From: Bacteroidales bacterium
Lineage (GTDB): Bacteria; Bacteroidota; Bacteroidia; Bacteroidales; UBA3663
Reading direction: 5' to 3'
Assembly (NCBI GenBank): GCA_045627785.1
Contig: JAZQOF010000004.1
Coordinates: 53,948-117,947 of the forward strand
DNA length: 64,000 nucleotides
Of this stretch, positions 13,154-41,651 are shown piece by piece. The notes beneath the pieces are model-generated. The model ran no database searches. It was given only the letters and a program-made list of their open reading frames with translations, and was not told the DNA's origin. Position 1 is the first letter of the stretch. Each line of letters starts with the position of its first letter. Both the position numbers and the translations under genes were made by a program.

Positions 13154-16084
13154 ATGAACGATCACGTACTTTCGGCATTAATAAATCTCTTCGCACTTTT
13201 TACGTCTTCTGCTGAACTTGATAAAGATAAGGCAAGAAAAAGTGTAATGAACTACCTCATAAGTTTCTTTTCAATAAGAAATTATGAGGAGTTTTTGGAT
13301 ATTTATGATGGTCTTTGTGACGTTTATGAAATGGGTCATTCCGATCTCGAAAAGATTATTCCTTCTATTGCAAACAAACTTACTGATCGCATTCCTAAAG
13401 TTGATCAGGCTTTATTGGTTTTGCGTTTCATGGAGTTCTCTTCTCAGAATCGTGAAGAATACATAAAACAGCGTTTCTTATTTGAGAAAGTTGCTAATAC
13501 ATTCAATGTAGAAGCAAAGACTTTTGAAGATTTCGATAGTTTTATTCAATCAAAGAAGAGTGAGAACGTAGGTGTAGAAAGTATCGAAGGTTCTGATTGT
13601 GTATTACGAGTTCTGCGTCTCCCTCAATATCATAAGGTAGTTACTGCCTTTGATGGAAACGTGCCAATCAAGATGAATGATATGCCAATTCATCCGGGCA
13701 TGTTTGTGATCTGGCCAGAGAATGGTATTATCAAATCTTCGAAATTTCAACCTAAATATTTTTCTCATGTAGCTGAATTGCTGGGTCAAAGTACTCGTCT
13801 CACTTCAATTCAAATGAGTGGACGAGATCTTGACTTTAGGTTTAAGAATAGCAACAACGGACTTCATAATTTCACATTCGATCTTCATTCTGGCGAATTC
13901 GTTGCTATAATGGGTGGAAGTGGTGTCGGCAAATCCACATTACTCAGTATTCTTAACGGATCACTAAGACCTCAGTCGGGCACTCTTTCTATCAATGGAC
14001 TTTCTCTTTATGATAATGTTGAGAGATTAAAGCCTTTTATAGGATTTGTACCTCAAGATGATCTTCTTATCGAAGAATTGACTGTGTATGAGAATCTTTT
14101 ATATACAGCTAAATTCTGTTTTGCTAATCTTTCCGAGAAGGAATTACGCGAAAAGGTTGACAATACATTAAAAGATCTCGGATTAAGTTCAATCCAACAT
14201 CTTAAGGTCGGATCTCCGTTGAATAAGACAATTTCCGGAGGGCAGAGAAAACGATTGAATATTGCGCTTGAGTTGATTCGAGAGCCGTCGATCCTTTTGC
14301 TAGATGAACCTACAAGCGGACTTTCTTCTGCGGATTCAGAGAAGGTCGTTTATCTTCTGAAAGAGCAGACTTATAAAGGAAAATTGGTGATAGTAAACAT
14401 TCACCAACCTTCTTCGGACATATATAAACTCTTCAATCGTCTTTGGATTCTTGATACTGGAGGATATCCGATTTTCGATGGTAATCCTATTGACGCTCCT
14501 ACAGAATTTAAGCAAGCAGCTGATTATACAGATGCTTTCAGTTCTGTTTGTCCAACATGCGGAAATATCAATCCGGAATTGGTATTGAACATTATCGATG
14601 AGAGAATTCTTGACAGCAATGGACAGTTAACAACTCGAAGAAAGAAATCTCCAGAAGATTGGCATGCAATATATAGGAGCAAAATCGGAGAGCTTGACGA
14701 TATCAAAGAAATAGCTTTGCCTGAATCAAATCAGAAGAAGCCAAATGCTCTTAAGCAGTTCTTCATTTATCTCAAACGTAATGTAAAGGCAAAACTTGCA
14801 GACCGACAGTTTCTCGCAATCGCTTTACTTGAAGCGCCAGTTCTTGCATGGATAGTTGCAAGGCTTTCTCGGTACGAAGGAGAAGATGGATATACTCTGT
14901 TTGAGAATATCAATATGATTTCATTCCTTTTTATGGCAATTATTGTCGCTGTATTTATGGGAATGAGTATCTGTGCAGAAGAAATATTCAAAGATCGTGC
15001 ATTGCTGAAACGAGAGAAATTCTTACAACTCTCGCATGGCGCATATATAACATCAAAGATATTTCAAGCAGCTGTAATTGCTGTTTTTCAGACAGGTTTA
15101 TTTATACTTGTTGCAAATAGTATAATGGAGATTCACGGACTTTGGATGCAATGGTGGCTGATATTGTTCTCATCTTCTTTCTTGGCTGCCCTTACAGGAT
15201 TGTTGCTTTCACAGACACTGAATTCTATTGTATCAATCTATATTACTATTCCACTTCTGCTTATTCCACAAATATTACTTTGCGGTGTGGTTATTGATTT
15301 CGATAGCCTCAATCATAACAGCAAGACTGGAAATGTGCCCGTTATTGCAGATTTGATTCCTACTCGTTGGTCTTTTGAGGCACTTGCTGTAACTCAAATG
15401 ACTGACAATGAATATACATCAAATTTCTTTGAGGAGCAAGCGGCACAATATGAATTACAGTTTGCCCGTCTAGGATTTTTGCATGAACTTGATGTTAAGG
15501 TCAAAGAAGCTAAGATCGACAAGCGACTTGGTAATGAAGATTGGGGCAAGTATCTGCCAATAGTCGTAAATGAAAGCAAGTTGTTTTCAGAAAGATGGGA
15601 TGTTGAACCATTCTCTGGTTTGGATCAGCTGACTATAGAAAGATTCACAGCTGAGGTTGCTGAAGATTATCGCTCTTGGGTTCAAAAGACAGATTCGATT
15701 CTCTTCAAGCGTAGTCAGGTTTATACTCGTATTATTGATAAGACAAAACAGATTCTAATTGATGATTTAGGATCTACCGGAAAACTGATTGATCTGCAAT
15801 ATAAAAGTTGTAACCAATCACTACAGGATCGCTTGGTTGGAATTGATGGACATAAACTTGTTCGTGTGGTTGGTGATCGTTTGGTCCCTTGTGCAGGACA
15901 AATCTATCTTAAGCCTTCAAGTCATATTGGTAGGGCTCCTTTTTATAGTCATGTCAAGATTCTTGGATCTCAGGAAGTTCCGACTCTTTGGTACAACCTT
16001 TGTGTTCTTGCAATAATGATGGTATTAGTATCTCTTATGCTTTATACCGATTGTCCTGGAAAATATATCAGAAATAATAAATAA
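13154..16084 (+). CDS. ABCG/ABC-2-type fused ATPase-permease with an extra ~225-aa N-terminal domain and a ~200-aa insertion before the last TM helix
   Basis: Walker A GGSGVGKST, signature ISGGQRKRL, Walker B ILLLDEPTSGL and an ABCG-type H-loop IHQPS. Five TM helices are followed by a long soluble segment and a final TM helix (LWYNLCVLAIMMVLVSLMLY). Confidence 0.8.
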   Translation: MNDHVLSALINLFALFTSSAELDKDKARKSVMNYLISFFSIRNYEEFLDIYDGLCDVYEMGHSDLEKIIPSIANKLTDRIPKVDQALLVLRFMEFSSQNREEYIKQRFLFEKVANTFNVEAKTFEDFDSFIQSKKSENVGVESIEGSDCVLRVLRLPQYHKVVTAFDGNVPIKMNDMPIHPGMFVIWPENGIIKSSKFQPKYFSHVAELLGQSTRLTSIQMSGRDLDFRFKNSNNGLHNFTFDLHSGEFVAIMGGSGVGKSTLLSILNGSLRPQSGTLSINGLSLYDNVERLKPFIGFVPQDDLLIEELTVYENLLYTAKFCFANLSEKELREKVDNTLKDLGLSSIQHLKVGSPLNKTISGGQRKRLNIALELIREPSILLLDEPTSGLSSADSEKVVYLLKEQTYKGKLVIVNIHQPSSDIYKLFNRLWILDTGGYPIFDGNPIDAPTEFKQAADYTDAFSSVCPTCGNINPELVLNIIDERILDSNGQLTTRRKKSPEDWHAIYRSKIGELDDIKEIALPESNQKKPNALKQFFIYLKRNVKAKLADRQFLAIALLEAPVLAWIVARLSRYEGEDGYTLFENINMISFLFMAIIVAVFMGMSICAEEIFKDRALLKREKFLQLSHGAYITSKIFQAAVIAVFQTGLFILVANSIMEIHGLWMQWWLILFSSSFLAALTGLLLSQTLNSIVSIYITIPLLLIPQILLCGVVIDFDSLNHNSKTGNVPVIADLIPTRWSFEALAVTQMTDNEYTSNFFEEQAAQYELQFARLGFLHELDVKVKEAKIDKRLGNEDWGKYLPIVVNESKLFSERWDVEPFSGLDQLTIERFTAEVAEDYRSWVQKTDSILFKRSQVYTRIIDKTKQILIDDLGSTGKLIDLQYKSCNQSLQDRLVGIDGHKLVRVVGDRLVPCAGQIYLKPSSHIGRAPFYSHVKILGSQEVPTLWYNLCVLAIMMVLVSLMLYTDCPGKYIRNNK

Positions 16085-16091
16085 AATTCTT

Positions 16092-16970
16092 ATGAAATCT
16101 ACTAAATTTTTAATTCATGTTGTCCTCTTTGGTTCAGCTATCATGTTTGGATCATGTTCAGGGTCTGCTAAGAAAGAAGCAGAAAAAGAAGCTAAGAAGC
16201 AAGTTCAGACAGTAAAGGCAGTTGTTATTGCTGAAGAGCTGAAAAAAGAGTGCGTTGAGATTTATAATCAAACAGCTTCTGAACAAAACAAGTTTATTGA
16301 GAATCTTGCAGAAATGAAATCGGAACTTGCTGATGTTCCAGTCAAGTTTTTTATGCCTTTGAATGTTGCGGGAAGAGCCCAGACTTTATGGCAGAAAGCA
16401 CAAGTATTAGGTTTCTATAATGTTGATAGAAATGTCGATAAGTTCTTGTTCGGAGGTAATAATGGAAATGCAGAACGTGAGGCATCAATGCTTTCTCTTG
16501 CGACAGATCTGAATCTCTCTACTGATTTTATTAATGGAGATGAATTGAATAGTGATAATCGTGCAGAGACATTGCAGAAGATCAATGATTTCAATACACA
16601 GATGTTTGCAAAGGCTTTGGATAATGACAACGCTCAGTTCGCAACCGTATCTATGGCGTATTCTATCATTGAATCCACAATCTGCAAGATCGGTTTGGCT
16701 AAGCTTTGGGACGATGAAGTAGACCAGCAGAAGATTTTTAATGTTGTGATCGAGCAAATGGAAATGTTGCGCAATTTTACAAAGCTTTACACAACTCTCA
16801 AACCATATTATGATTCTTTGTCACCACTTGAACCACTTGTTCAGAAGATCCAGAAGGTGGCAAATGCGGATAAGGGAACAGAACTTGATAACGCATTATA
16901 TGATTATATCTCTTATGCAAATGAGATGCGCGATCATGTTCTCACAGAGTTCAATCTTGTTGTAAAATAA
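16092..16970 (+). CDS. Hypothetical lipoprotein (helical, no recognised family)
   Basis: Signal peptide with lipobox (IMFGSCSGS). 8-nt gap from the ABC gene and 6 nt to the next gene. Confidence 0.6.
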   Translation: MKSTKFLIHVVLFGSAIMFGSCSGSAKKEAEKEAKKQVQTVKAVVIAEELKKECVEIYNQTASEQNKFIENLAEMKSELADVPVKFFMPLNVAGRAQTLWQKAQVLGFYNVDRNVDKFLFGGNNGNAEREASMLSLATDLNLSTDFINGDELNSDNRAETLQKINDFNTQMFAKALDNDNAQFATVSMAYSIIESTICKIGLAKLWDDEVDQQKIFNVVIEQMEMLRNFTKLYTTLKPYYDSLSPLEPLVQKIQKVANADKGTELDNALYDYISYANEMRDHVLTEFNLVVK

Positions 16971-27295: not shown

Positions 27296-29263
27296 ATGAA
27301 GCTGAAAACTTTATATTGTATTATCTTATTAACATTGCTTTCAACATTCTGCTATGCTCAGTCAACGCAGAAGGGAATAGTGCTTGAATACAATGGACCA
27401 GACAAGAAAACTCCTTTGGCAAATGTAGAAATTGTTGTTAACAATGCAGGTTCTACTGTGTCTGATAAGAATGGAGAGTTCATATTGCAATTCCGTACAC
27501 TTATTGCCGGCGATAAGATTACAATTCGTCGTGTGGAAAAAACCGGATATGAATTGTTCAATACCGATATCGTTTCTCAGTTTGTGATTACTAATGACGA
27601 ACCGATTACAATCGTCATGTGTAAGACTGATAAACTTCATAATCTTCGCAATACTTATACTTCAAATGCTCATAAGCGTTTGGAAGAGTCTTATTCTGCA
27701 GAAAGCTCGTCATTGAAAGAATCTTTTCAGAATGGTTTTATTACAGAGATTGAATTTGAAAAGAAAAAGAAAGATCTTCAAAACAGATATGATGAGATGT
27801 TGGAAAACATCGATAATTATATCGAGCGTTTCACACGTCTTGATTTGAGCGAGCTGAACGATTTGGATAAGTCGGTTATTGAACATGTTCGTCAAGGAAA
27901 TATTCTCGATGCAATAAAAGTGTATGACTCTGCCAATCTGATGAATTCTTATTTGTCTCAGTCGAAGGAACTTCAGCAATTGACAGCAGCTGAGCAAAAA
28001 GTATCTTCAGTCGTAGATAGCAGACAACAGAGAATTTCTTCACTTAAATCGTCTATCAGAAATCAGATCAATGTCCTTTGGCTTGCTGGAGGTTCAGAAA
28101 ACTTTAAGAAAATATTGAATCTTACTAAGGATATGGCGGATGCTAATCCTTATGATAGAGATGCACAGATAGAGTATGGAGATCTTTGCTATAATTCGCA
28201 CAGGTTTGATGAGGCATTAGAGTATTATAATAAAGCATTCGATGCTTCGAATAATGATGTCTTGAAAGAAGCACAGGTAAGAATTAAGCGTGGCGCTGTG
28301 TATTCGAAAATGAACGACATCGATAATGGAACTTGGGAGAGTATTACAGGACTTCATGATATTGACAGCCTTTTAGGAGTAAAGCAGGATTCTGATATTT
28401 ATCTTATTGAAAGAGTATTCTCACAAGTTAATATTGCTAATAACTTCCTGCGCAAGAAAGATCTTGTAAATGCCAAGGCATATTATTCTTGGGCATTATC
28501 GGAAATGCAACTTTTGATGGAGTTGGATTCTATAAGGTATATGAGACCTTATGGAGAAGTATTGTCTGATTATGGGCATGCTTTAGCTCTGTCTGGCGAT
28601 TCAATAGAAGCGGAACAAAAATTGTTGTCGGCGATTGATGTCTTTGGAAGATTGTTCCAGGAATCTCCAAAATCTTATTCCGGTTCTCTTGCAAAAGCTT
28701 ACGATTATTTAGCAGAGATGTACTTTGATGAAAGAAAGTCAGAAATAGCCGAGAAGAACTTCTGGACAGCACTTTCATATTATCAGCAGGCTTGTGAGTA
28801 CAATTCAGAGTTTTATCTTGGTCTTGCTGGTGTATGTCTTCAGAAGCTCGGAAGATTGCATATAAGTGAAAAGAGGTACGAAAGAGCAATGAATGTATTC
28901 AACAAATCAATTGATTTGATCAATATGGCTTCTGAGCACAATCCTTATGAATATAAAGACAGAATCGCTAATGCCAATCTTGCTAAGGGAACTGTTTATT
29001 GGCTCAATGGTGATTATGAAAATACACTCAAACAGGATCTTTTAGCGGAAGAACTATACGCAGAAATATTTGAGCACACTGACCAATTGTATAATAGTAA
29101 CATCGGACAGTGTGCAGTATATTCAGGAGATTGCTATTTCAAACTCGGTGATTATGGCAATGCTTTGAAATGCTATGAGCGTGCATATAACTATGATAAG
29201 AAAGATAGTTATCTGTACAAGATGAAAAGAATGCAGAATTTTATTGTATTGTTCGGCAATTAG
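27296..29263 (+). CDS. Secreted protein with a CarboxypepD_reg-like N-domain, a coiled-coil and TPR repeats (function unknown)
   Basis: Signal peptide, then KGIVLEY...VEIVVNNAGSTVSDKNGEFILQF, then repeated TPR-like A..Y..A segments. Its stop codon overlaps the stop codon of the convergent MBOAT gene (29260-29263). Confidence 0.6.
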   Translation: MKLKTLYCIILLTLLSTFCYAQSTQKGIVLEYNGPDKKTPLANVEIVVNNAGSTVSDKNGEFILQFRTLIAGDKITIRRVEKTGYELFNTDIVSQFVITNDEPITIVMCKTDKLHNLRNTYTSNAHKRLEESYSAESSSLKESFQNGFITEIEFEKKKKDLQNRYDEMLENIDNYIERFTRLDLSELNDLDKSVIEHVRQGNILDAIKVYDSANLMNSYLSQSKELQQLTAAEQKVSSVVDSRQQRISSLKSSIRNQINVLWLAGGSENFKKILNLTKDMADANPYDRDAQIEYGDLCYNSHRFDEALEYYNKAFDASNNDVLKEAQVRIKRGAVYSKMNDIDNGTWESITGLHDIDSLLGVKQDSDIYLIERVFSQVNIANNFLRKKDLVNAKAYYSWALSEMQLLMELDSIRYMRPYGEVLSDYGHALALSGDSIEAEQKLLSAIDVFGRLFQESPKSYSGSLAKAYDYLAEMYFDERKSEIAEKNFWTALSYYQQACEYNSEFYLGLAGVCLQKLGRLHISEKRYERAMNVFNKSIDLINMASEHNPYEYKDRIANANLAKGTVYWLNGDYENTLKQDLLAEELYAEIFEHTDQLYNSNIGQCAVYSGDCYFKLGDYGNALKCYERAYNYDKKDSYLYKMKRMQNFIVLFGN

Positions 29264-31158
29264 AACTGGAAATAGATAAATGGTTGCATTTCTGCAGTTA
29301 CAAACTGATAGCAGATAATGATTACCGAAACCACAATTAATGCCATCACAGGCAACGGAAGTTTTGCAAAGCAAATTCTGTATTTCCTTTTCATTCTACT
29401 TGGCAGCCAGTGAATAATCATTCCCATTACGAAAAGAAGGAATATGTTGTGATAAGCCATAATAACATCCCAGACGTTTACATTCCATTGTGTTCCGATA
29501 CTATTTATCATATCCTTCGCAATGTTCCATGCTGTTTCGTTTGCTACTGCTGGATCAAGGTTTGAGCCTGAACGGAAGAAGAGTCGCGTAAATGTAATGA
29601 ATGTAAATGTAACGAGTATTGACCAACCTCGATTAAGCCATTCAAAAGGATTGCTTCCGCCACACATATTATATATATAGCGAATCCATGCACTTATTGC
29701 TATAAATGCGGAGAAAAACAAAAGCAGATTCCAGAGTGGTAATGGGAAGAATATTCTCAATCCTATGAAGAGTGCTGCAAGTCCTGTTGGAATAATTGCT
29801 CGAGTAAGCAGAGACATGTCTCTCCAGAACTTGAATATTACCATTCCGACACCATTCAAACCACCCCAAATCATAAAATTCATGCTTGCTCCATGCCATA
29901 GACCGCCAAGCAACATTGTAATCATAGAATTCAGATTAGCATAAATATGACGACGTTTTTCTGGATGACGCATAGCAGTGAAAATAGTAAGAACTGCTAT
30001 TGCAAGTACTATTAATCCTACGATTAGACTACCAGAAAGAACTAGAGCGGCAAGTGTAATTGTTGTAATCCAAAAGTATGTGCCGAATGTAATGTTTCTA
30101 TTACCACCAAGTGGAATATAAAGATAAGTTTGTAACCAGCGAGACAAGGAAATATGCCAACGTTTCCAGAAGTTTCCGGCATTCTGTGCTTTGTAAGGCG
30201 AATTAAAGTTCAATGGGAGATAGAAGCCCATCAAAAGTGACAGACCTATAGCAATATCTGTGTAACCAGAGAAATCCGCATAGACTTGGAGAGAATAGAA
30301 GAAGAGTGCGCAAAGATTCTCAAATCCTCCGAAGAACTGAGGATTATTGAATACTCTGTCGATGAAGTTTACTGCAAGATAGTCGCTAAGTATGATCTTT
30401 TTGGTCAGACCATTCAGAATCCAGAATACAGCTATGCCGAATTGCAGACGACTTAATGCATATTTTCTATAGAGCTGTGGAATGAAATCGCTTGCTTTGA
30501 CGATTGGTCCTGCAACCAATTGTGGGAAGAAACTAACATAAAATCCGAAGTCCAGAATGTTACGGACAGGTTTTACAAATCCTTTGAATACATCGGCAGT
30601 GTAACTGATGATTTGGAAGGTATAGAAGGAAATACCAACAGGAAGTATAATTCGGTCAACGCTGAAGAAAGAACTGCCTGTAGCTTTGTTTGCAATTTCT
30701 GCGGCAATGTTTGTTACTTCTATTGTTGTGCCGAATAATTGGTTAAAAACGTCGGCAAAGAAATAGCTGTATTTGAAATAACAAAGAATGCTTAAATCGA
30801 TGCAAACAGACAAGCAGAGTAATAGTTTGGCCTTTAGTTCTTGAATTGGTCTTTCTGAATGTGGTTTGTCAAAACTTTCAGGACTCCATTTGAGTTTGTA
30901 GATTCCTTGGGCGATGAAGAAATCTGAGATGGTAACGAATATTAATAAACCGACGAACAATCCGCTTGTCTTGTAATAGAATAGCAGACTGACAAAAAAT
31001 AAATAGCTGTTGCGTAATAGTCTTTTGTCTTTGAACAATGCAAAGAATGCAAAAACTATTGCAAAGAACGCCCAAAACTGAAACTGTGTGAATAATAGAG
31101 GAGAGTTCGGGTCGAAGGAAAAGATATTTAATATGTATGTAAATAATTGCTGTAACAT
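29260..31158 (-). CDS. MBOAT-family membrane O-acyltransferase (AlgI/PatA/DltB-like) with an extended C-terminal membrane region
   Basis: Conserved MBOAT His block FWKRWHISLSRWLQTYLYIPLGGNR. Polytopic; 632 aa is longer than I recall for AlgI-type proteins. Confidence 0.85.
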   Translation of the reverse strand: MLQQLFTYILNIFSFDPNSPLLFTQFQFWAFFAIVFAFFALFKDKRLLRNSYLFFVSLLFYYKTSGLFVGLLIFVTISDFFIAQGIYKLKWSPESFDKPHSERPIQELKAKLLLCLSVCIDLSILCYFKYSYFFADVFNQLFGTTIEVTNIAAEIANKATGSSFFSVDRIILPVGISFYTFQIISYTADVFKGFVKPVRNILDFGFYVSFFPQLVAGPIVKASDFIPQLYRKYALSRLQFGIAVFWILNGLTKKIILSDYLAVNFIDRVFNNPQFFGGFENLCALFFYSLQVYADFSGYTDIAIGLSLLMGFYLPLNFNSPYKAQNAGNFWKRWHISLSRWLQTYLYIPLGGNRNITFGTYFWITTITLAALVLSGSLIVGLIVLAIAVLTIFTAMRHPEKRRHIYANLNSMITMLLGGLWHGASMNFMIWGGLNGVGMVIFKFWRDMSLLTRAIIPTGLAALFIGLRIFFPLPLWNLLLFFSAFIAISAWIRYIYNMCGGSNPFEWLNRGWSILVTFTFITFTRLFFRSGSNLDPAVANETAWNIAKDMINSIGTQWNVNVWDVIMAYHNIFLLFVMGMIIHWLPSRMKRKYRICFAKLPLPVMALIVVSVIIICYQFVTAEMQPFIYFQF

Positions 31159-31178
31159 TTCTTCTTGTTGTTCAGATC

Positions 31179-32555
31179 TTATTCAGCATTTCTTTTGATA
31201 AAGTAATCGTCGACGATGGCATTATACATTAAATCGCCAACGAGCTGATAGCCTTCTCGTGTAAAATGGATATGGTCTTTTTTCATCAGATTCTCTTTTA
31301 GCCATTTATCTGATGAACCTAATCCGCCCATTATTGCATAGACATCAAACACACATCCATTATATTCTTTTGCAAGGTCTGTGAATGCTTGTTGAACCTT
31401 CGCTGTATTTGGGTTGAAGGTCTTTTTCCTTCCTCTTCTTTTCTTTCTAGGAAGATTAAGATAACAGTCGTTGTTTGTTATGAAAAGGAATGAACAATCC
31501 TGGTTCACAGACTGTATTCGTCGTATTAATGTGCGGTAGTCAGATTTGAATACTTCAGGATCAAATTCATCGACTGGCACATTAGCGTCGTTGATTCCTA
31601 TTCCGAAGATTACAAGATCGGGTGGAAGTAAAGAAAGGTCTTGTGTGAATTTTGTGCAACGTAACCATGAAGGAACGGCTGCACCGTTTACACCAGACTC
31701 TGAATATGTGATACCATCTCGTTCGCTAAGAGGCATTATTCCTCTTAATGTAAATGTATTTGTTTCGGAAACTCCTTTGAATGCTATTTGGAACGTTGTT
31801 TTTTCTGATCCGAGATCGAAAATATAAGCTTCAGGATTTCCTCCTTTTTCTGTATAGTAAATAGTATCTGATTCAGAGATAATGAATGGAAAAACACTAG
31901 CCGAAGAACTTTCTCCAATTATTTTTATTTTTGAAAAAGCCCATCTTCTGTCTCCTCTGAAATCAAAAGAAATAGAATCTTTACTGTCTTTGGCAATTGC
32001 AGCAGCACCCGAAAGTCCAAGTTCTGCATCAGGCTGTTGTGACACACATCTTGATTTTCCCCAATCGCCGGAATATGTCACATAGTAGTTCCAAGGACCA
32101 TTGCTCTTAAGAACTTTGAAAGGAAAGATAAGTCCTCTATCGCCTATCGTTGCATCACCCCAACGTGAGAAATTACTTCTCATCTGACCAGAAAGATCTC
32201 CTGCTTGAACATGGCTTCCTCCAATATGCAAGATGTTTACGTTACCTCCATCTGCAAGCATTTTATCAAGTTGTGTATAGAAATGCTCCATACCAATTCT
32301 AGAACCAGGATATTTCAAATATCCTTCTGCAGAATCGTTGACACAAGTATAATTGTTAGAAACCGGAACTTTCAACCAGTCTATGATCTTCTGTTCAAAG
32401 TTGGTCAGAGTCAATAGAAATGCTATCAGACATGCTAAAACGGTCATAGTTTCTAAAGCGATAATATTTGTAATAAACATCGAATGTGCCATAAAGAATC
32501 TCAGATATCTGACGAGATCCCTTGGTTGTGAAATGGATATAATCTTCACCAGCAA
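31179..32555 (-). CDS. SGNH/GDSL-family hydrolase or acyltransferase, membrane-anchored
   Basis: Block III FGIGINDAN and block V KDHIHFTREG, with a TM anchor TVLACLIAFLLTL. The true start is probably internal (Met codons at 32492, 32480 or 32447), because the maximal ORF overlaps the upstream gene by 161 nt. Confidence 0.7.
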   Translation of the reverse strand: MLVKIISISQPRDLVRYLRFFMAHSMFITNIIALETMTVLACLIAFLLTLTNFEQKIIDWLKVPVSNNYTCVNDSAEGYLKYPGSRIGMEHFYTQLDKMLADGGNVNILHIGGSHVQAGDLSGQMRSNFSRWGDATIGDRGLIFPFKVLKSNGPWNYYVTYSGDWGKSRCVSQQPDAELGLSGAAAIAKDSKDSISFDFRGDRRWAFSKIKIIGESSSASVFPFIISESDTIYYTEKGGNPEAYIFDLGSEKTTFQIAFKGVSETNTFTLRGIMPLSERDGITYSESGVNGAAVPSWLRCTKFTQDLSLLPPDLVIFGIGINDANVPVDEFDPEVFKSDYRTLIRRIQSVNQDCSFLFITNNDCYLNLPRKKRRGRKKTFNPNTAKVQQAFTDLAKEYNGCVFDVYAIMGGLGSSDKWLKENLMKKDHIHFTREGYQLVGDLMYNAIVDDYFIKRNAE

Positions 32556-33837
32556 GTTGTGGTCGTGCCTTTACCCATTGTACCATTGAACCTTTTCCTC
32601 CCATAGCACTAAACATATCCCAATATGCTGCGCCGGCTTCATTTACAGCCTTTTGTAATGTTGAAACGAATTCGGGCAAGTGAGGATATGTTTGCATAGT
32701 TCCTCCGATTGAAGTGGCCATGTCAGAAGGCCCGATATAAAGAATTTTTGCGAGAGGTACAATCTTGTGGAAGAACTCAATCTGCTTTTTTGTCTGATTA
32801 CAGAAAGACTGGATGCTTTCAGATTTCTTAGTGTAGGGAACAGAGTTGCCTCCATATTGAAGGATGATTAATGCCACATTCTCATCTTTGTAAAAACTCT
32901 CAATCGAGTTACGGTCAATGTTTGTGAATATTGTTCCAGAACAACCACGCATTGCAACATTATCCATTACAATGCCATTCATGCCGTCAAGCTGTATTGT
33001 GTGGACATCCATTACTCCACTTGCAACAAGGTAGCCATTCTTTGCTGGTTTTGGAAGGATTGCTTCATATAGTCTTACTCCGCCTTGACTCTTTGTAGTG
33101 TCGCAAGTTAATGGAATATTCTTTCCTCCTGCATTGAATGAGAAAGAACCGCTTCCTTGCATTCTTACACGGATTCGCTGGAATGTCTGAGCGTGAGGAT
33201 AATCTTCTGCAGAGCGAGTGCGGAATGAAACTACAGTAGTAGTATCAACGTGTGCGACTTGTGCCATTGGTCCATAACGACGATGTCTGGCACGACGATC
33301 TTGTGGTCCGTAAACTATATAGCTTGGAATTCTATCTTGAGGATTAATGCTTTGTGCGCACGTATATGTCGCACCAGTCATTGGAACAAGTGTCTTCATT
33401 CCGACGCCACTTCCTCCAAACTGACTTTGGAATCTCTCTCGGAGATATGATGTCATTCTGTCCTCTTCGAGTTGGGAATCTCCGTAATGAACAATTCGGA
33501 CAACTTCATTTTTGCTATTCTCTAGTTTTAAGAATAGATCGTCGAAGAATGTAACGTCATTATTAGGAAAATAAAACCTCGATTCGCTGTTGTTTATGTA
33601 GCTTAGATATTCTCCGTCTTTTGAATTTACTAATGCTTGTAAACGTTGTTGATATAATTCCTCTGGACTTAGTTCCGGTTCCTGTGGAGTTCCTTTTGTT
33701 GCTAATACTTCACTTAAGGAAGGAAACTCAAGAACAACTGGTCCTGCTTTCAATCCTTCTGTTGGGAATATAAAAGAAACAAATGCTAATATTCCTAATA
33801 CAGAGAATATGAATAAAACAATTTTGTATGCTTTCAT
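32395..33837 (-). CDS. SGNH/GDSL-family hydrolase or acyltransferase, signal-anchored
   Basis: Block I VHYGDSQLEED, a mid-block LQYGGN and block V EDYIHFTTKG. N-terminal anchor IVLFIFSVLGILAFVSFIF. Confidence 0.7.
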   Translation of the reverse strand: MKAYKIVLFIFSVLGILAFVSFIFPTEGLKAGPVVLEFPSLSEVLATKGTPQEPELSPEELYQQRLQALVNSKDGEYLSYINNSESRFYFPNNDVTFFDDLFLKLENSKNEVVRIVHYGDSQLEEDRMTSYLRERFQSQFGGSGVGMKTLVPMTGATYTCAQSINPQDRIPSYIVYGPQDRRARHRRYGPMAQVAHVDTTTVVSFRTRSAEDYPHAQTFQRIRVRMQGSGSFSFNAGGKNIPLTCDTTKSQGGVRLYEAILPKPAKNGYLVASGVMDVHTIQLDGMNGIVMDNVAMRGCSGTIFTNIDRNSIESFYKDENVALIILQYGGNSVPYTKKSESIQSFCNQTKKQIEFFHKIVPLAKILYIGPSDMATSIGGTMQTYPHLPEFVSTLQKAVNEAGAAYWDMFSAMGGKGSMVQWVKARPQLAGEDYIHFTTKGSRQISEILYGTFDVYYKYYRFRNYDRFSMSDSISIDSDQL

Positions 33838-33844
33838 TCTTTAC

Positions 33845-34294
33845 TTAATATCTAATAAACTTCAATCGTAGAAGATTACTTTGAAGAATCATTTCTTCAC
33901 CATCCAATCGTTCAACAACAAATTGTTCAGTTAAAGCGTTTATTCCAAAAGGTCGTAGTAGATTTACGTCTTCAGTTTTTTCTTCTGCTTGCTCTCTATG
34001 ATGATTGATGTAAGGATCAAAGGTTTTTAAGATTGTTCCTTCGTGAGAGAATCTCATAAATATATTCTGATTCTTTTGAGTTTTGTCTTCCAGACTCAAA
34101 AGTTTGTCTTGAACACTCCAGAATATTCCTTCATGCTTATAATCTATTGTAGGACAATTGACTCCAATGGAATCTACCGAAACAAGATGCCACATGCCAT
34201 CAAGATCTCCATTGTCCGAGATCTCGAAACCGCTACAGGCAAATAGTGTTACAGTAATATATATATATAATGTATATAATATTTTATTCTTCAT
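33845..34294 (-). CDS. Small lipoprotein, lipocalin-like (tentative)
   Basis: Lipobox TLFACSG followed by a DLDGMWHL (GxW) motif, in a 149-aa beta-rich sequence. Confidence 0.45.
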   Translation of the reverse strand: MKNKILYTLYIYITVTLFACSGFEISDNGDLDGMWHLVSVDSIGVNCPTIDYKHEGIFWSVQDKLLSLEDKTQKNQNIFMRFSHEGTILKTFDPYINHHREQAEEKTEDVNLLRPFGINALTEQFVVERLDGEEMILQSNLLRLKFIRY

Positions 34295-34306
34295 TCGTCG
34301 TTTTTA

Positions 34307-35839
34307 TTAGTAAGCTATCTTATATATGACTGAGAATTGAACTCCGTTGTTGTTACCAAGGATCTGTCCGTTATCGAGTCCGTAAGAAAGTTTCAGATTC
34401 ATACCATCTAACCATTTCCTGCAATCGTATTGGAATTCTGTAAGCAGACTGAAGTTCTTGCGATGTTCGTCATAAGGATAACGATATGTGCCAAGACCTT
34501 TCTGCCATGTTGCTAAAATTCGATAAGACAGGTCTTCACAGATATTTCCGTCCAACCCGAAATGCCAAGCGTAGAAACGATTGTTCTTTATCCATAGGTC
34601 ACCATCTTCATTGTTGATAGGAGATAGGTACAAAGGGTTTCCTATAACTTGACCGTAATATTGCCAACCTGGATAGTATTCGTGATTGTAATAGTTGTCT
34701 TGTCCTCCTATCTGATCATAGATTGTTTCACTATGGTCATGATAAACAGGTCCGCTTTGGAAACGAGTGTTTATGAATTCAGCAACAAAATTCCTGATGT
34801 AGTTTTGGTTTTTGAAATTGAGCTCGAGTCCTATTAATCCATCTTTTACAGGATAAACATAGTATTTACTATCTCTTTTTTCCCAATCTCCGTCTTTTCC
34901 ATATCCATATCTGCCAAGATGGTAGAATGCAGAGTGGTCGTCAAAGAAATGTTCTCCGTATATACTTATATTTACTGGATCAAATTTGTAGGTGAATCTT
35001 GCCAACCAGCTTCCTAGATGATTTCCTTCGGAATTTATATAACCTATTTCATCTTCTCTGAAATCACTTCCTCCAGGAATGAAGGCATGCCAGAATCCTT
35101 TTATTCCGCTTTCGCCTTTGAAACTATAGAATTTTCCTTCTCCGTCAAACCAATTTACATCGCCACCGAATATAGCAGCCATTTCCAATCCAAGTTCAAC
35201 GCTGAAAGGCTTTTCATCTTTTCCAATTTTCAGGTAACCTGCCTTATTGTGATACAAAGCAGATTCTGTCCATTTATTTTGCTGGTTGGTAAAATCTTTT
35301 TGCCAAGAACCATCAGTCATAAGACCATAAGCGATGAATCCTTTTAATGAGAGCCATTTGTTTAATCCAGGAATCGGCCAATATTCTTCAAGACCTATTC
35401 TCACTTGTGGAATAGGATGTGCATTGATACCTAAAGTCTGTGAACCAGATGAGAGTGTCTGATTCTTCAATTCCATTTTTTGCTGTTTGCTACCAATAGT
35501 CAAAGTTCCTCTTTTGTATCTTCCTTCAAAATACAGTTGTTGAAGAAAAACAGGAGAACTATAATTGTATGCAGCAACAAGATCCAATCCATAGCCGATG
35601 CCCCATTTCTTCTGGTCATCGTTCTTGATATCTCTCTTTATGGCAGCTCTCAGATAGCCGTTCGATCCTTTTATTGAACTAAGACCATATTTGTTGGCAT
35701 TCAGCCACAGTGGTGTTTTGCCGTTGCTGGCAGATATCTGCATTTCGTATTCAGTCTCTATTCCTTCGAATATAGACTTGTTTTGTGCCGATATAATCGT
35801 CGCAGAAAGAATAATGTATAAAAAGAATAGTTTACGCAC
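34307..35839 (-). CDS. Outer-membrane beta-barrel protein, capsule-assembly Wzi-like (tentative)
   Basis: Signal peptide, an N-terminal block TPLWLNANKYGLSS, alternating aromatic/Gly-rich strands and a C-terminal aromatic residue (..YKIAY). Confidence 0.45.
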   Translation of the reverse strand: MRKLFFLYIILSATIISAQNKSIFEGIETEYEMQISASNGKTPLWLNANKYGLSSIKGSNGYLRAAIKRDIKNDDQKKWGIGYGLDLVAAYNYSSPVFLQQLYFEGRYKRGTLTIGSKQQKMELKNQTLSSGSQTLGINAHPIPQVRIGLEEYWPIPGLNKWLSLKGFIAYGLMTDGSWQKDFTNQQNKWTESALYHNKAGYLKIGKDEKPFSVELGLEMAAIFGGDVNWFDGEGKFYSFKGESGIKGFWHAFIPGGSDFREDEIGYINSEGNHLGSWLARFTYKFDPVNISIYGEHFFDDHSAFYHLGRYGYGKDGDWEKRDSKYYVYPVKDGLIGLELNFKNQNYIRNFVAEFINTRFQSGPVYHDHSETIYDQIGGQDNYYNHEYYPGWQYYGQVIGNPLYLSPINNEDGDLWIKNNRFYAWHFGLDGNICEDLSYRILATWQKGLGTYRYPYDEHRKNFSLLTEFQYDCRKWLDGMNLKLSYGLDNGQILGNNNGVQFSVIYKIAY

Positions 35840-36671
35840 CTTCTATTATTGGATAATTGTTTTCTACATGACCGATAGGACAATCAAAATACATAGGAAT
35901 ATTGTAAGGACCTATCATGTCGCGCATAGTATCATATAAATTCTTTGGCATTTCAGGGTCTTCGTCGCATCCTGTGAACTGACCTATTATGATGCCTTTT
36001 ATTTTGTCAAAGATGTTTCCCAATCGCAATTGGTTCATCATTCTGTCAACCTTGTATGGAGATTCCTGTATGTCTTCGATAAATAGTATTTTATCTTGAT
36101 AGTCAAAATCATATTCAGTGCCATGTAATCCTGAAAGAACAGCAAGATTTCCACCAATTATCGGAAAAGTAAAATCTGCATCTATTATTGCACCAAACTG
36201 GGAGTTGAACGGTATGTTATATAAAGCGTTTTTATCATCGTCCATAGCATCAAGTATTTCCTTGATTGCTAATGATGTCGGATCTGTCGGCTTTTCTCCC
36301 AAGTGTTTCATCATGTGACAATGAACGCTTCGTATACCTGCTTTTTGCCAAAGTGCATGAAGTGCAGTTATGTCGCTATATCCGAAAACAGGTTTGTTTG
36401 ATTCTTTTATCAAATCCAAGGGAATCTTGTCAAGAATCTGCATACATCCGTATCCGCCTCTTGACGCGTATATGACATCTACATCAGGATCTTTCAATGC
36501 TTCAATGATATCATTTGCGCGATCTTCAGCTGTACCTGCAAATCTGCCGTACTTATCTTTCGCATGCTTTGATAAAGTAACATTGTGTCCCCAGGAACAT
36601 AATGTTTCAACACCTTTATCAATTACTTCAGGAGCACAATGTCCGGCAGGTGAGATTATTCTTATTTTCAT
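35832..36671 (-). CDS. ldcA: LD-carboxypeptidase (muramoyltetrapeptide carboxypeptidase, peptidase S66)
   Basis: Nucleophile motif VFGYSDITAL, a C-terminal FDCPIGHV catalytic His region, and length of 279 aa. Confidence 0.8.
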   Translation of the reverse strand: MKIRIISPAGHCAPEVIDKGVETLCSWGHNVTLSKHAKDKYGRFAGTAEDRANDIIEALKDPDVDVIYASRGGYGCMQILDKIPLDLIKESNKPVFGYSDITALHALWQKAGIRSVHCHMMKHLGEKPTDPTSLAIKEILDAMDDDKNALYNIPFNSQFGAIIDADFTFPIIGGNLAVLSGLHGTEYDFDYQDKILFIEDIQESPYKVDRMMNQLRLGNIFDKIKGIIIGQFTGCDEDPEMPKNLYDTMRDMIGPYNIPMYFDCPIGHVENNYPIIEGA

Positions 36672-41643: not shown

Positions 41644-41651
41644 CAAATTTA
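41644..41651 (-). promoter_or_regulatory. -7 promoter box (TAAATTTG on the minus strand) upstream of glnS
   Basis: Plus-strand CAAATTTA. Lies 45 nt upstream of the glnS ATG. Confidence 0.4.

Follow-up and report, generated by a model that had tools for sequence, protein, structure and literature searches.

Genes at the locus

The window analyzed here is a 64,000-nucleotide stretch from a Bacteroidales bacterium whose genome is a 3.15-Mb draft, 90% complete; the names that its close homologues bear point to Prevotella. Positions 29260-35839 carry five minus-strand genes that a preliminary description, made from the sequence, had proposed to form one machine for the O-acetylation of an envelope glycan. 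In the direction of transcription they encode a Wzi-like protein, a lipoprotein of the Lipocalin_8 family, two SGNH proteins (designated SGNH_A and SGNH_B) and an MBOAT protein, and their coordinates agree with the close packing described for them (gaps of 12, 7 and 20 nt and one overlap). We find that SGNH_A, SGNH_B and MBOAT constitute a Bacteroidetes-type O-acetylpeptidoglycan (OAP) cluster, which has been known since 2005 and is not a new system. The Wzi-like and Lipocalin_8 genes are a two-gene module of their own, which stands beside the trio only in this Prevotella lineage. That the trio is an OAP cluster and the pair an unrelated module that happens to lie next to it is, in our judgment, quite probable as an account of the whole locus.

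The trio is a Bacteroidetes-type O-acetylpeptidoglycan cluster

An OAP cluster with the gene order ape1b-ape1c-pat was reported in Bacteroides thetaiotaomicron, B. fragilis and P. gingivalis by Weadge, Pfeffer and Clarke in 2005 (B. thetaiotaomicron accessions NP_811595/4/3; PMC1199599), and the window order SGNH_A, SGNH_B, MBOAT is the same. The two clusters share their three gene types, two SGNH proteins of Ape family 1, a terminal MBOAT gene and a Bacteroidales host, and this arrangement suggests that the window genes are orthologous to NP_811593-5. They differ in that the window MBOAT is a long form with hydrophobic insertions, in their upstream neighbours, and in that both window SGNH proteins have an insert after motif I, whereas the published Ape1c does not (PMC1199599). 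In SGNH_B, about 177 aa separate the block I Ser from the block II Gly, and the whole of Ape1 aligns to the protein with the insert included; SGNH_B thus departs from the 2005 definition of Ape1c as a protein that lacks a segment of ~100 aa after motif I. For this reason, the names Ape1b for SGNH_A and Ape1c for SGNH_B are assigned by gene position only. The 2005 study measured peptidoglycan O-acetylation levels of 69% for B. fragilis and 27% for B. thetaiotaomicron (PMC1199599); values of 56-66% for three Bacteroides species appear in a 2024 review (PMC11382707).

We examined 80 named MBOAT loci from species-representative genomes, scoring them with our own hidden Markov models; 39 of these were assessable (G, L and P numbers denote genomes, loci and proteins from the protein search, respectively). 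The three genes occurred in the same order at 29 of the 39 loci. At six others only SGNH_A and MBOAT were found, and at two more (L057 and L058) SGNH_A was fused to MBOAT in one open reading frame and there was no SGNH_B gene; one locus (L060) had SGNH_B only and one had neither SGNH gene. These loci come from Bacteroidales, Flavobacteriales, Chitinophagales, Cytophagales, Chlorobiota and Cloacimonadota, among others. Four further genomes of the genus and four other families of the order also show the trio order, and it is present in the Bacteroidaceae loci L069 and L071, where the MBOAT is 34-36% identical to that of the window. Variant arrangements were observed as well: one family has the order SGNH_A, MBOAT, SGNH_B, and two genomes have SGNH_A followed by two tandem MBOAT genes (together L133, L136, L138-L141 and L143; L118 and L128). 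Two contigs labelled Kurthia senegalensis (L037) and Fibrobacter sp. (L041) carry a Bacteroidales-type trio with an MBOAT 55% identical to the window's; binning contamination or mislabelling is the likely cause.

Conservation of the full five-gene order across Bacteroidota had been suggested as a check; the order holds for the trio and fails for the pair, since no Wzi-like, Lipocalin_8 or ldcA gene lies within 10 kb of any of the 80 MBOAT loci. Beyond the window genome, the full five-gene set was found only in its nearest relative, G011, and in L147, where synteny from glnS to MBOAT is complete and the Wzi-like protein is 77% identical. The same restriction bears on the context gene ldcA (35832-36671, minus strand), which encodes an LD-carboxypeptidase with N- and C-terminal Peptidase_S66 domains (~2e-34 each) and overlaps the Wzi-like gene by 8 nt, as had been described. 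Its adjacency had been taken to favour peptidoglycan as the substrate; because ldcA adjoins the trio only in the window genome, G011 and L147, and the adjacency is thus confined to this lineage, we rejected it as evidence.

Better evidence for peptidoglycan is provided by full-length homology to the esterase Ape1 (see below) and by a recurrent neighbour. A gene for a lytic transglycosylase with SLT and LysM domains lies directly upstream of the trio, on the same strand, at 14 of the 39 assessable loci, and three families of the order show it in that place as well. Lytic transglycosylases require a free C6 hydroxyl, the group that O-acetylation blocks, and the linkage to a LysM transglycosylase therefore points to peptidoglycan. 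In one of the SLT+LysM genes beside the trio (L013:13702-15342), GS stands in place of the catalytic ES motif; the second copy at that locus (15346-16824) and the genes at L014:14897-16486 and L015:2940-4517 retain IIESALNP, so that loss of the motif is restricted to some lineages.

The MBOAT gene (29260-31158, minus strand) encodes a protein of 632 aa (Pfam MBOAT, 1.4e-18) whose best solved relative is DltB. The catalytic His block recognized earlier is borne out by the alignment of orthologues, in which W334-H335, with the catalytic His335, is invariant. Invariant too is F627-F632 at the C-terminus, where the sequence FIYFQF (residues 627-632) conforms to an FxYxxF motif, with Tyr629 as its tyrosine; nearly all of the 80 related MBOATs have this motif. 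In PatA, the tyrosine of the FxYxxF tail carries the acetyl intermediate (Anderson et al. 2025, PMC12148441). In a quick tree of 82 related MBOATs whose rows were labelled by their gene context, the window protein falls in a clade of 36 rows (SH-aLRT support 100); Ape1-like neighbours are present in 32 of these rows and lacking in none. The unusual length of the protein had also been pointed out. Forms of 613-643 aa are common to a whole Bacteroidales subclade, other orthologues having 500-560 aa, and the alignment attributes the extra length to hydrophobic insertions at residues ~355-405 and ~447-505 and to short loops, with no added domain.

The window genome, at 90% completeness, shows no OatA-type AT3-SGNH fusion that might take over this step, all AT3 frames being 328-392 aa. 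The only other MBOAT of the genome (466 aa; G000:C36:140323-141723, also L113:6324-7724) is encoded in a glycan locus whose genes specify NeuB, a cytidylyltransferase, an EptA-like protein with a sulfatase fold and a CotH-like protein. The gene that follows this second MBOAT has 301 aa, matches no Pfam family and is possibly its partner.

Both SGNH proteins are full-length homologues of Ape1

SGNH_A (32395-33837, minus strand, 480 aa) matches Pfam Lipase_GDSL_2 at 1e-3, under the gathering score, and SGNH_B matches the same family at 2.9e-15. The start of SGNH_B is uncertain: its longest open reading frame is 458 aa, from a TTG at 32555, with in-frame ATGs at 32492, 32480 and 32447, and we took the gene as 31179..32492 on the minus strand. 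With any of these starts, the gene shares at least 53 nt with the 3′ end of SGNH_A.

In single-sequence searches, the best solved relatives of both proteins were structures of Ape1 (4k3u from N. meningitidis; 8gkd and 8gld from C. jejuni). The entry 8GKD is identified as C. jejuni Ape1 in PMC12115436, in agreement with the structure entry titles. The SGNH_B family profile aligned with 4k3u from end to end (E = 2.4e-39) and with 8gkd at 4e-34, and its block I, II, III and V motifs are identical to those of Ape1, GxNGA of block II included. For the SGNH_A family profile the corresponding values were 1.6e-33 and 7e-18, whereas PatB (8tlb) matched it only at E ~0.1, over block V. There was no Pfam match of the AlgX/AlgJ type or to AlgF. 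Among the families with which a comparison had been suggested (PatB, Ape1, and AlgJ and AlgX), it is Ape1 that the SGNH proteins match, and by profile alignment both SGNH families are full-length homologues of this solved peptidoglycan O-acetylesterase.

SGNH_A is an Ape1 homologue by its predicted fold as well. Its AlphaFold model (pLDDT 89) has a membrane helix (residues 3-23), a helical linker and an SGNH domain with a beta-sandwich insert, and the top two Foldseek matches were Ape1 structures (E = 7e-22 to 1e-20, TM 0.77-0.82), followed by a match at 1e-6; PatB was not among the best 50. The conserved blocks noted in both proteins were confirmed, and the family alignments show the catalytic residues to be invariant in each (S121, G298, N331, D432 and H435 in SGNH_A; S93, G270, N301, D406 and H409 in SGNH_B, numbered from Met22), so that a full Ser/Asp/His triad and oxyanion residues are present in both. 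Both had also been described as membrane-anchored. The model supports this for SGNH_A; for SGNH_B, the start is uncertain and most orthologues have a cleavable signal peptide ending in AQ rather than an anchor. SGNH_B is a secreted Ape1-type protein and probably acts as the O-acetylpeptidoglycan esterase.

PatB and OatA are recognizable as transferases by a Ser or Asn in block II where Gly is canonical. Both SGNH proteins retain the Gly; in SGNH_A, Gly298 is kept and the Asn that precedes it is replaced by an invariant Arg297. A PatB-family transferase would have no insert, a block II Ser or Asn, and beta-hairpin wings, and neither protein is of this type. Compared with the PatA/PatB/Ape1 systems of Neisseria and Campylobacter, the window genes share an MBOAT with the catalytic His and the FxYxxF acetyl-Tyr tail, a periplasmic protein that is probably an Ape1-type esterase, and one SGNH partner anchored by an N-terminal membrane helix and linker. 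They differ in having no PatB-family protein, the anchored partner having instead an Ape1 fold with a beta-sandwich insert and the canonical block II Gly, and in their reversed order, in which the MBOAT gene follows the SGNH genes.

Used as a query against 1.84 billion proteins, the L057 fusion recovered fusions of both SGNH_A and SGNH_B to MBOAT, the former in P0121 and P0122. The single-frame fusions, from L057:8549-11530, L058:8489-11500 and proteins P0121-P0258, are 900-1050 aa long, have an Ape1-like SGNH domain N-terminal to the MBOAT, and all end in FIYFxF.

The Wzi-like and Lipocalin_8 genes form a separate module

The Wzi-like gene (34307-35839, minus strand, GTG start) encodes a 510-aa protein with a signal peptide that matches Pfam Caps_assemb_Wzi (PF14052) at 1.3e-13, with 51.2 bits against a gathering cut-off of 30.1; a relative carries the database name 'capsule assembly Wzi family protein'. 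Failure of this first gene to encode a beta-barrel had been named as a refutation of the proposal. The AlphaFold model (pLDDT 77, pTM 0.77) is a barrel of ~18 long strands, and its best Foldseek matches are the 18-stranded barrels AlgE, OccD/OprD and chitoporin (E ~1e-12), with MOMP also among the best. On the strength of this model, we take the protein to be a real outer-membrane beta-barrel. Its assignment to Wzi comes from Pfam and the predicted fold only, since the family profile had no match among PDB sequences at E up to 10.

The adjoining Lipocalin_8 gene (33845-34294, minus strand; Pfam Lipocalin_8, 2.6e-34) encodes a 149-aa lipoprotein whose lipobox Cys20 is invariant in the family alignment. 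In all 22 cases examined, a Lipocalin_8 gene adjoins a gene of the Wzi family on the same strand, and either of the two may come first. The genus accounts for 10 of these cases, G019 for 4 and five further families for 8 (the genomes include G019, G436, G477, G494, G501 and G506). Across the order, Lipocalin_8 was found in 11 of 101 sampled genomes. In four genomes of the same genus (G010, G013, G015 and G005) the pair is on a different contig from the trio, and in four others (G003, G006, G008 and G014) the pair is present and no trio-type MBOAT was found. Taken together with the 80 MBOAT loci, this distribution speaks against the earlier suggestion that the barrel and lipoprotein are novel accessory parts of the acetylation machine. 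Elsewhere, the neighbours of the pair include Wzz-like and MatE/Wzx-like genes (G018), a GT4 initiating transferase (several genomes), YceG (G019) and, in one locus, GH2 genes. The pair probably acts on a surface polysaccharide.

Transcription of the run

Because Bacteroidetes promoters differ, we avoided a sigma-70 scanner and looked for promoters by the consensus -7 box, TAnnTTTG. In the ten-gene minus-strand run this box occurs once, as TAAATTTG at window positions 41644-41651, 46 nt upstream of glnS. The largest gap between glnS and MBOAT is at most 42 nt, as previously noted. The position of the box suggests one long ten-gene transcript. At the far end of the run, the MBOAT stop overlaps by 4 nt (29260-29263) the stop of a convergent 655-aa TPR gene (27296-29263, plus strand), and there is no room for a terminator.

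Discussion

O-acetylation of peptidoglycan governs lysozyme resistance, the control of autolysins and the release of immune-active wall fragments. The walls of gut Bacteroidales are heavily acetylated; the genes responsible were predicted in 2005, and no genetic test of these genes in the phylum was found in the literature. The claim that an MBOAT with two SGNH proteins makes up an envelope-glycan O-acetylation machine stands, with peptidoglycan as its best-supported substrate on account of the Ape1 homology and the LysM transglycosylase neighbour. By analogy with PatA/PatB, the MBOAT would take acetyl from cytoplasmic acetyl-CoA, and His335 would catalyse its transfer to Tyr629 of FIYFQF at the periplasmic face. 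The serine of an SGNH protein would then collect the acetyl group and place it on the C6 hydroxyl of N-acetylmuramic acid in peptidoglycan. In this scheme membrane-anchored SGNH_A would be the transferase partner of the MBOAT, and secreted SGNH_B, the closer relative of Ape1, would act as the esterase, taking acetyl off again and so allowing lytic transglycosylases to cut. In Campylobacter and Neisseria, peptidoglycan O-acetylation rises when ape1 is deleted.

We give this division of labour about an even chance. SGNH_A is favoured as the transferase because of its PatB-like membrane helix and linker in the model, because it is the sole SGNH gene at six loci and is fused to MBOAT at two that have no SGNH_B, and because SGNH_B is closer to the Ape1 esterase, the block II motif included. 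A more general proposal is that Bacteroidota have no PatB and that an anchored Ape1 paralogue, SGNH_A (Ape1b), became the peptidoglycan O-acetyltransferase in its stead, with no oxyanion-hole change of the PatB or OatA type; we advance this tentatively, as slightly less probable than its opposite. The comparative data suggest that, in Bacteroidota, a protein of the Ape1 fold and not PatB carries out the transferase step. If so, the replacement would be non-orthologous, an esterase scaffold having been converted to a transferase.

Several observations weigh against this account of the locus. Both SGNH proteins keep the canonical Gly in block II, where PatB and OatA have Ser or Asn. SGNH_B, too, occurs fused to MBOAT (P0125, P0127, P0129, P0132 and P0133), and at L060 it is the only SGNH gene; consequently, fusion and sole-partner evidence does not cleanly single out SGNH_A, and fusions were set aside as a means of identifying the partner of the MBOAT. 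Homology to Ape1 would by itself leave the substrate unfixed, and our literature search found no experiment that ties the trio to peptidoglycan in Bacteroidota. Finally, the trio and the Wzi-like/Lipocalin_8 pair may be co-transcribed here, since they are 7 nt apart and the sole consensus -7 box lies upstream of glnS.

Among the alternatives, the one that fares best retains peptidoglycan as the substrate and assigns the SGNH proteins differently. Acetyl would pass in a relay from MBOAT to SGNH_A to SGNH_B, the last of which would acetylate the wall, or SGNH_B would be the transferase with SGNH_A otherwise employed, and there would be no dedicated esterase. In the alginate system, the proposed relay runs from AlgI to AlgJ to AlgX, AlgJ being anchored and AlgX soluble. 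The window genes resemble that system in combining an MBOAT with one anchored and one soluble SGNH-like protein, and the complete catalytic sets of both SGNH proteins are compatible with such a relay, as are the existence of MBOAT fusions of either kind and the locus with SGNH_B only. They differ from it in that their SGNH proteins match Ape1 and not the AlgX/AlgJ type and in that AlgF and alginate synthesis genes are missing. The eight loci with SGNH_A alone (six separate, two fused) speak against the relay and its reverse, as does the closeness of SGNH_B to a proven esterase, down to block II, and we regard this alternative as unlikely.

Less probable still is a trio directed at some other glycan (for instance capsule, lipopolysaccharide or a secreted polysaccharide) in the manner of the AlgI and WssH systems. 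All bacterial MBOAT-SGNH systems have the FxYxxF tail, a genetic test of the trio in Bacteroidota was not found in the literature, and capsule-directed phage enzymes, too, contain Ape1-like SGNH domains (PMC12115436). Against this, a LysM lytic transglycosylase gene lies directly upstream at 14 loci, no glycosyltransferase or export genes surround the trio, and it is the second MBOAT of the genome that sits in a sugar-nucleotide/glycan locus. Moreover, Bacteroides peptidoglycan is heavily O-acetylated and the window genome has no OatA-type candidate. The idea that all five genes are one machine for O-acetylating a surface polysaccharide, with the Wzi-like barrel and the lipoprotein as its outer-membrane parts, draws on the 12- and 7-nt gaps with no consensus promoter between the genes, on the persistence of the arrangement in G011 and L147 and on the polysaccharide genes near the pair elsewhere, but we consider it very improbable given that the co-location is limited to one shallow lineage, that four genomes of the genus have the two modules on different contigs, that each module was found in some genomes without the other, that none of the 80 MBOAT loci has the pair and that Lipocalin_8 is present in 11 of 101 genomes of the order, as against a widespread trio.

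With the trio as an OAP cluster and the pair as a module in its own right, the latter invites comparison with Wzi of E. coli K30, an outer-membrane lectin for group 1 capsule. The window protein is like it in scoring above the Pfam cut-off and in its predicted ~18-stranded outer-membrane barrel. It is unlike it in that there is no detectable sequence match, that the solved E. coli Wzi was absent from the best 50 Foldseek matches of the model, that it is always paired with Lipocalin_8, and that no wza-wzb-wzc genes lie nearby in the window. We know of no description of a Lipocalin_8 partner for Wzi, and a literature search for the Wzi/lipocalin pair in Bacteroidales returned nothing relevant. 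Lipocalin_8 emerges here as an obligate neighbour of Wzi-family barrels, the two forming a small outer-membrane module of possible relevance to capsule biology.

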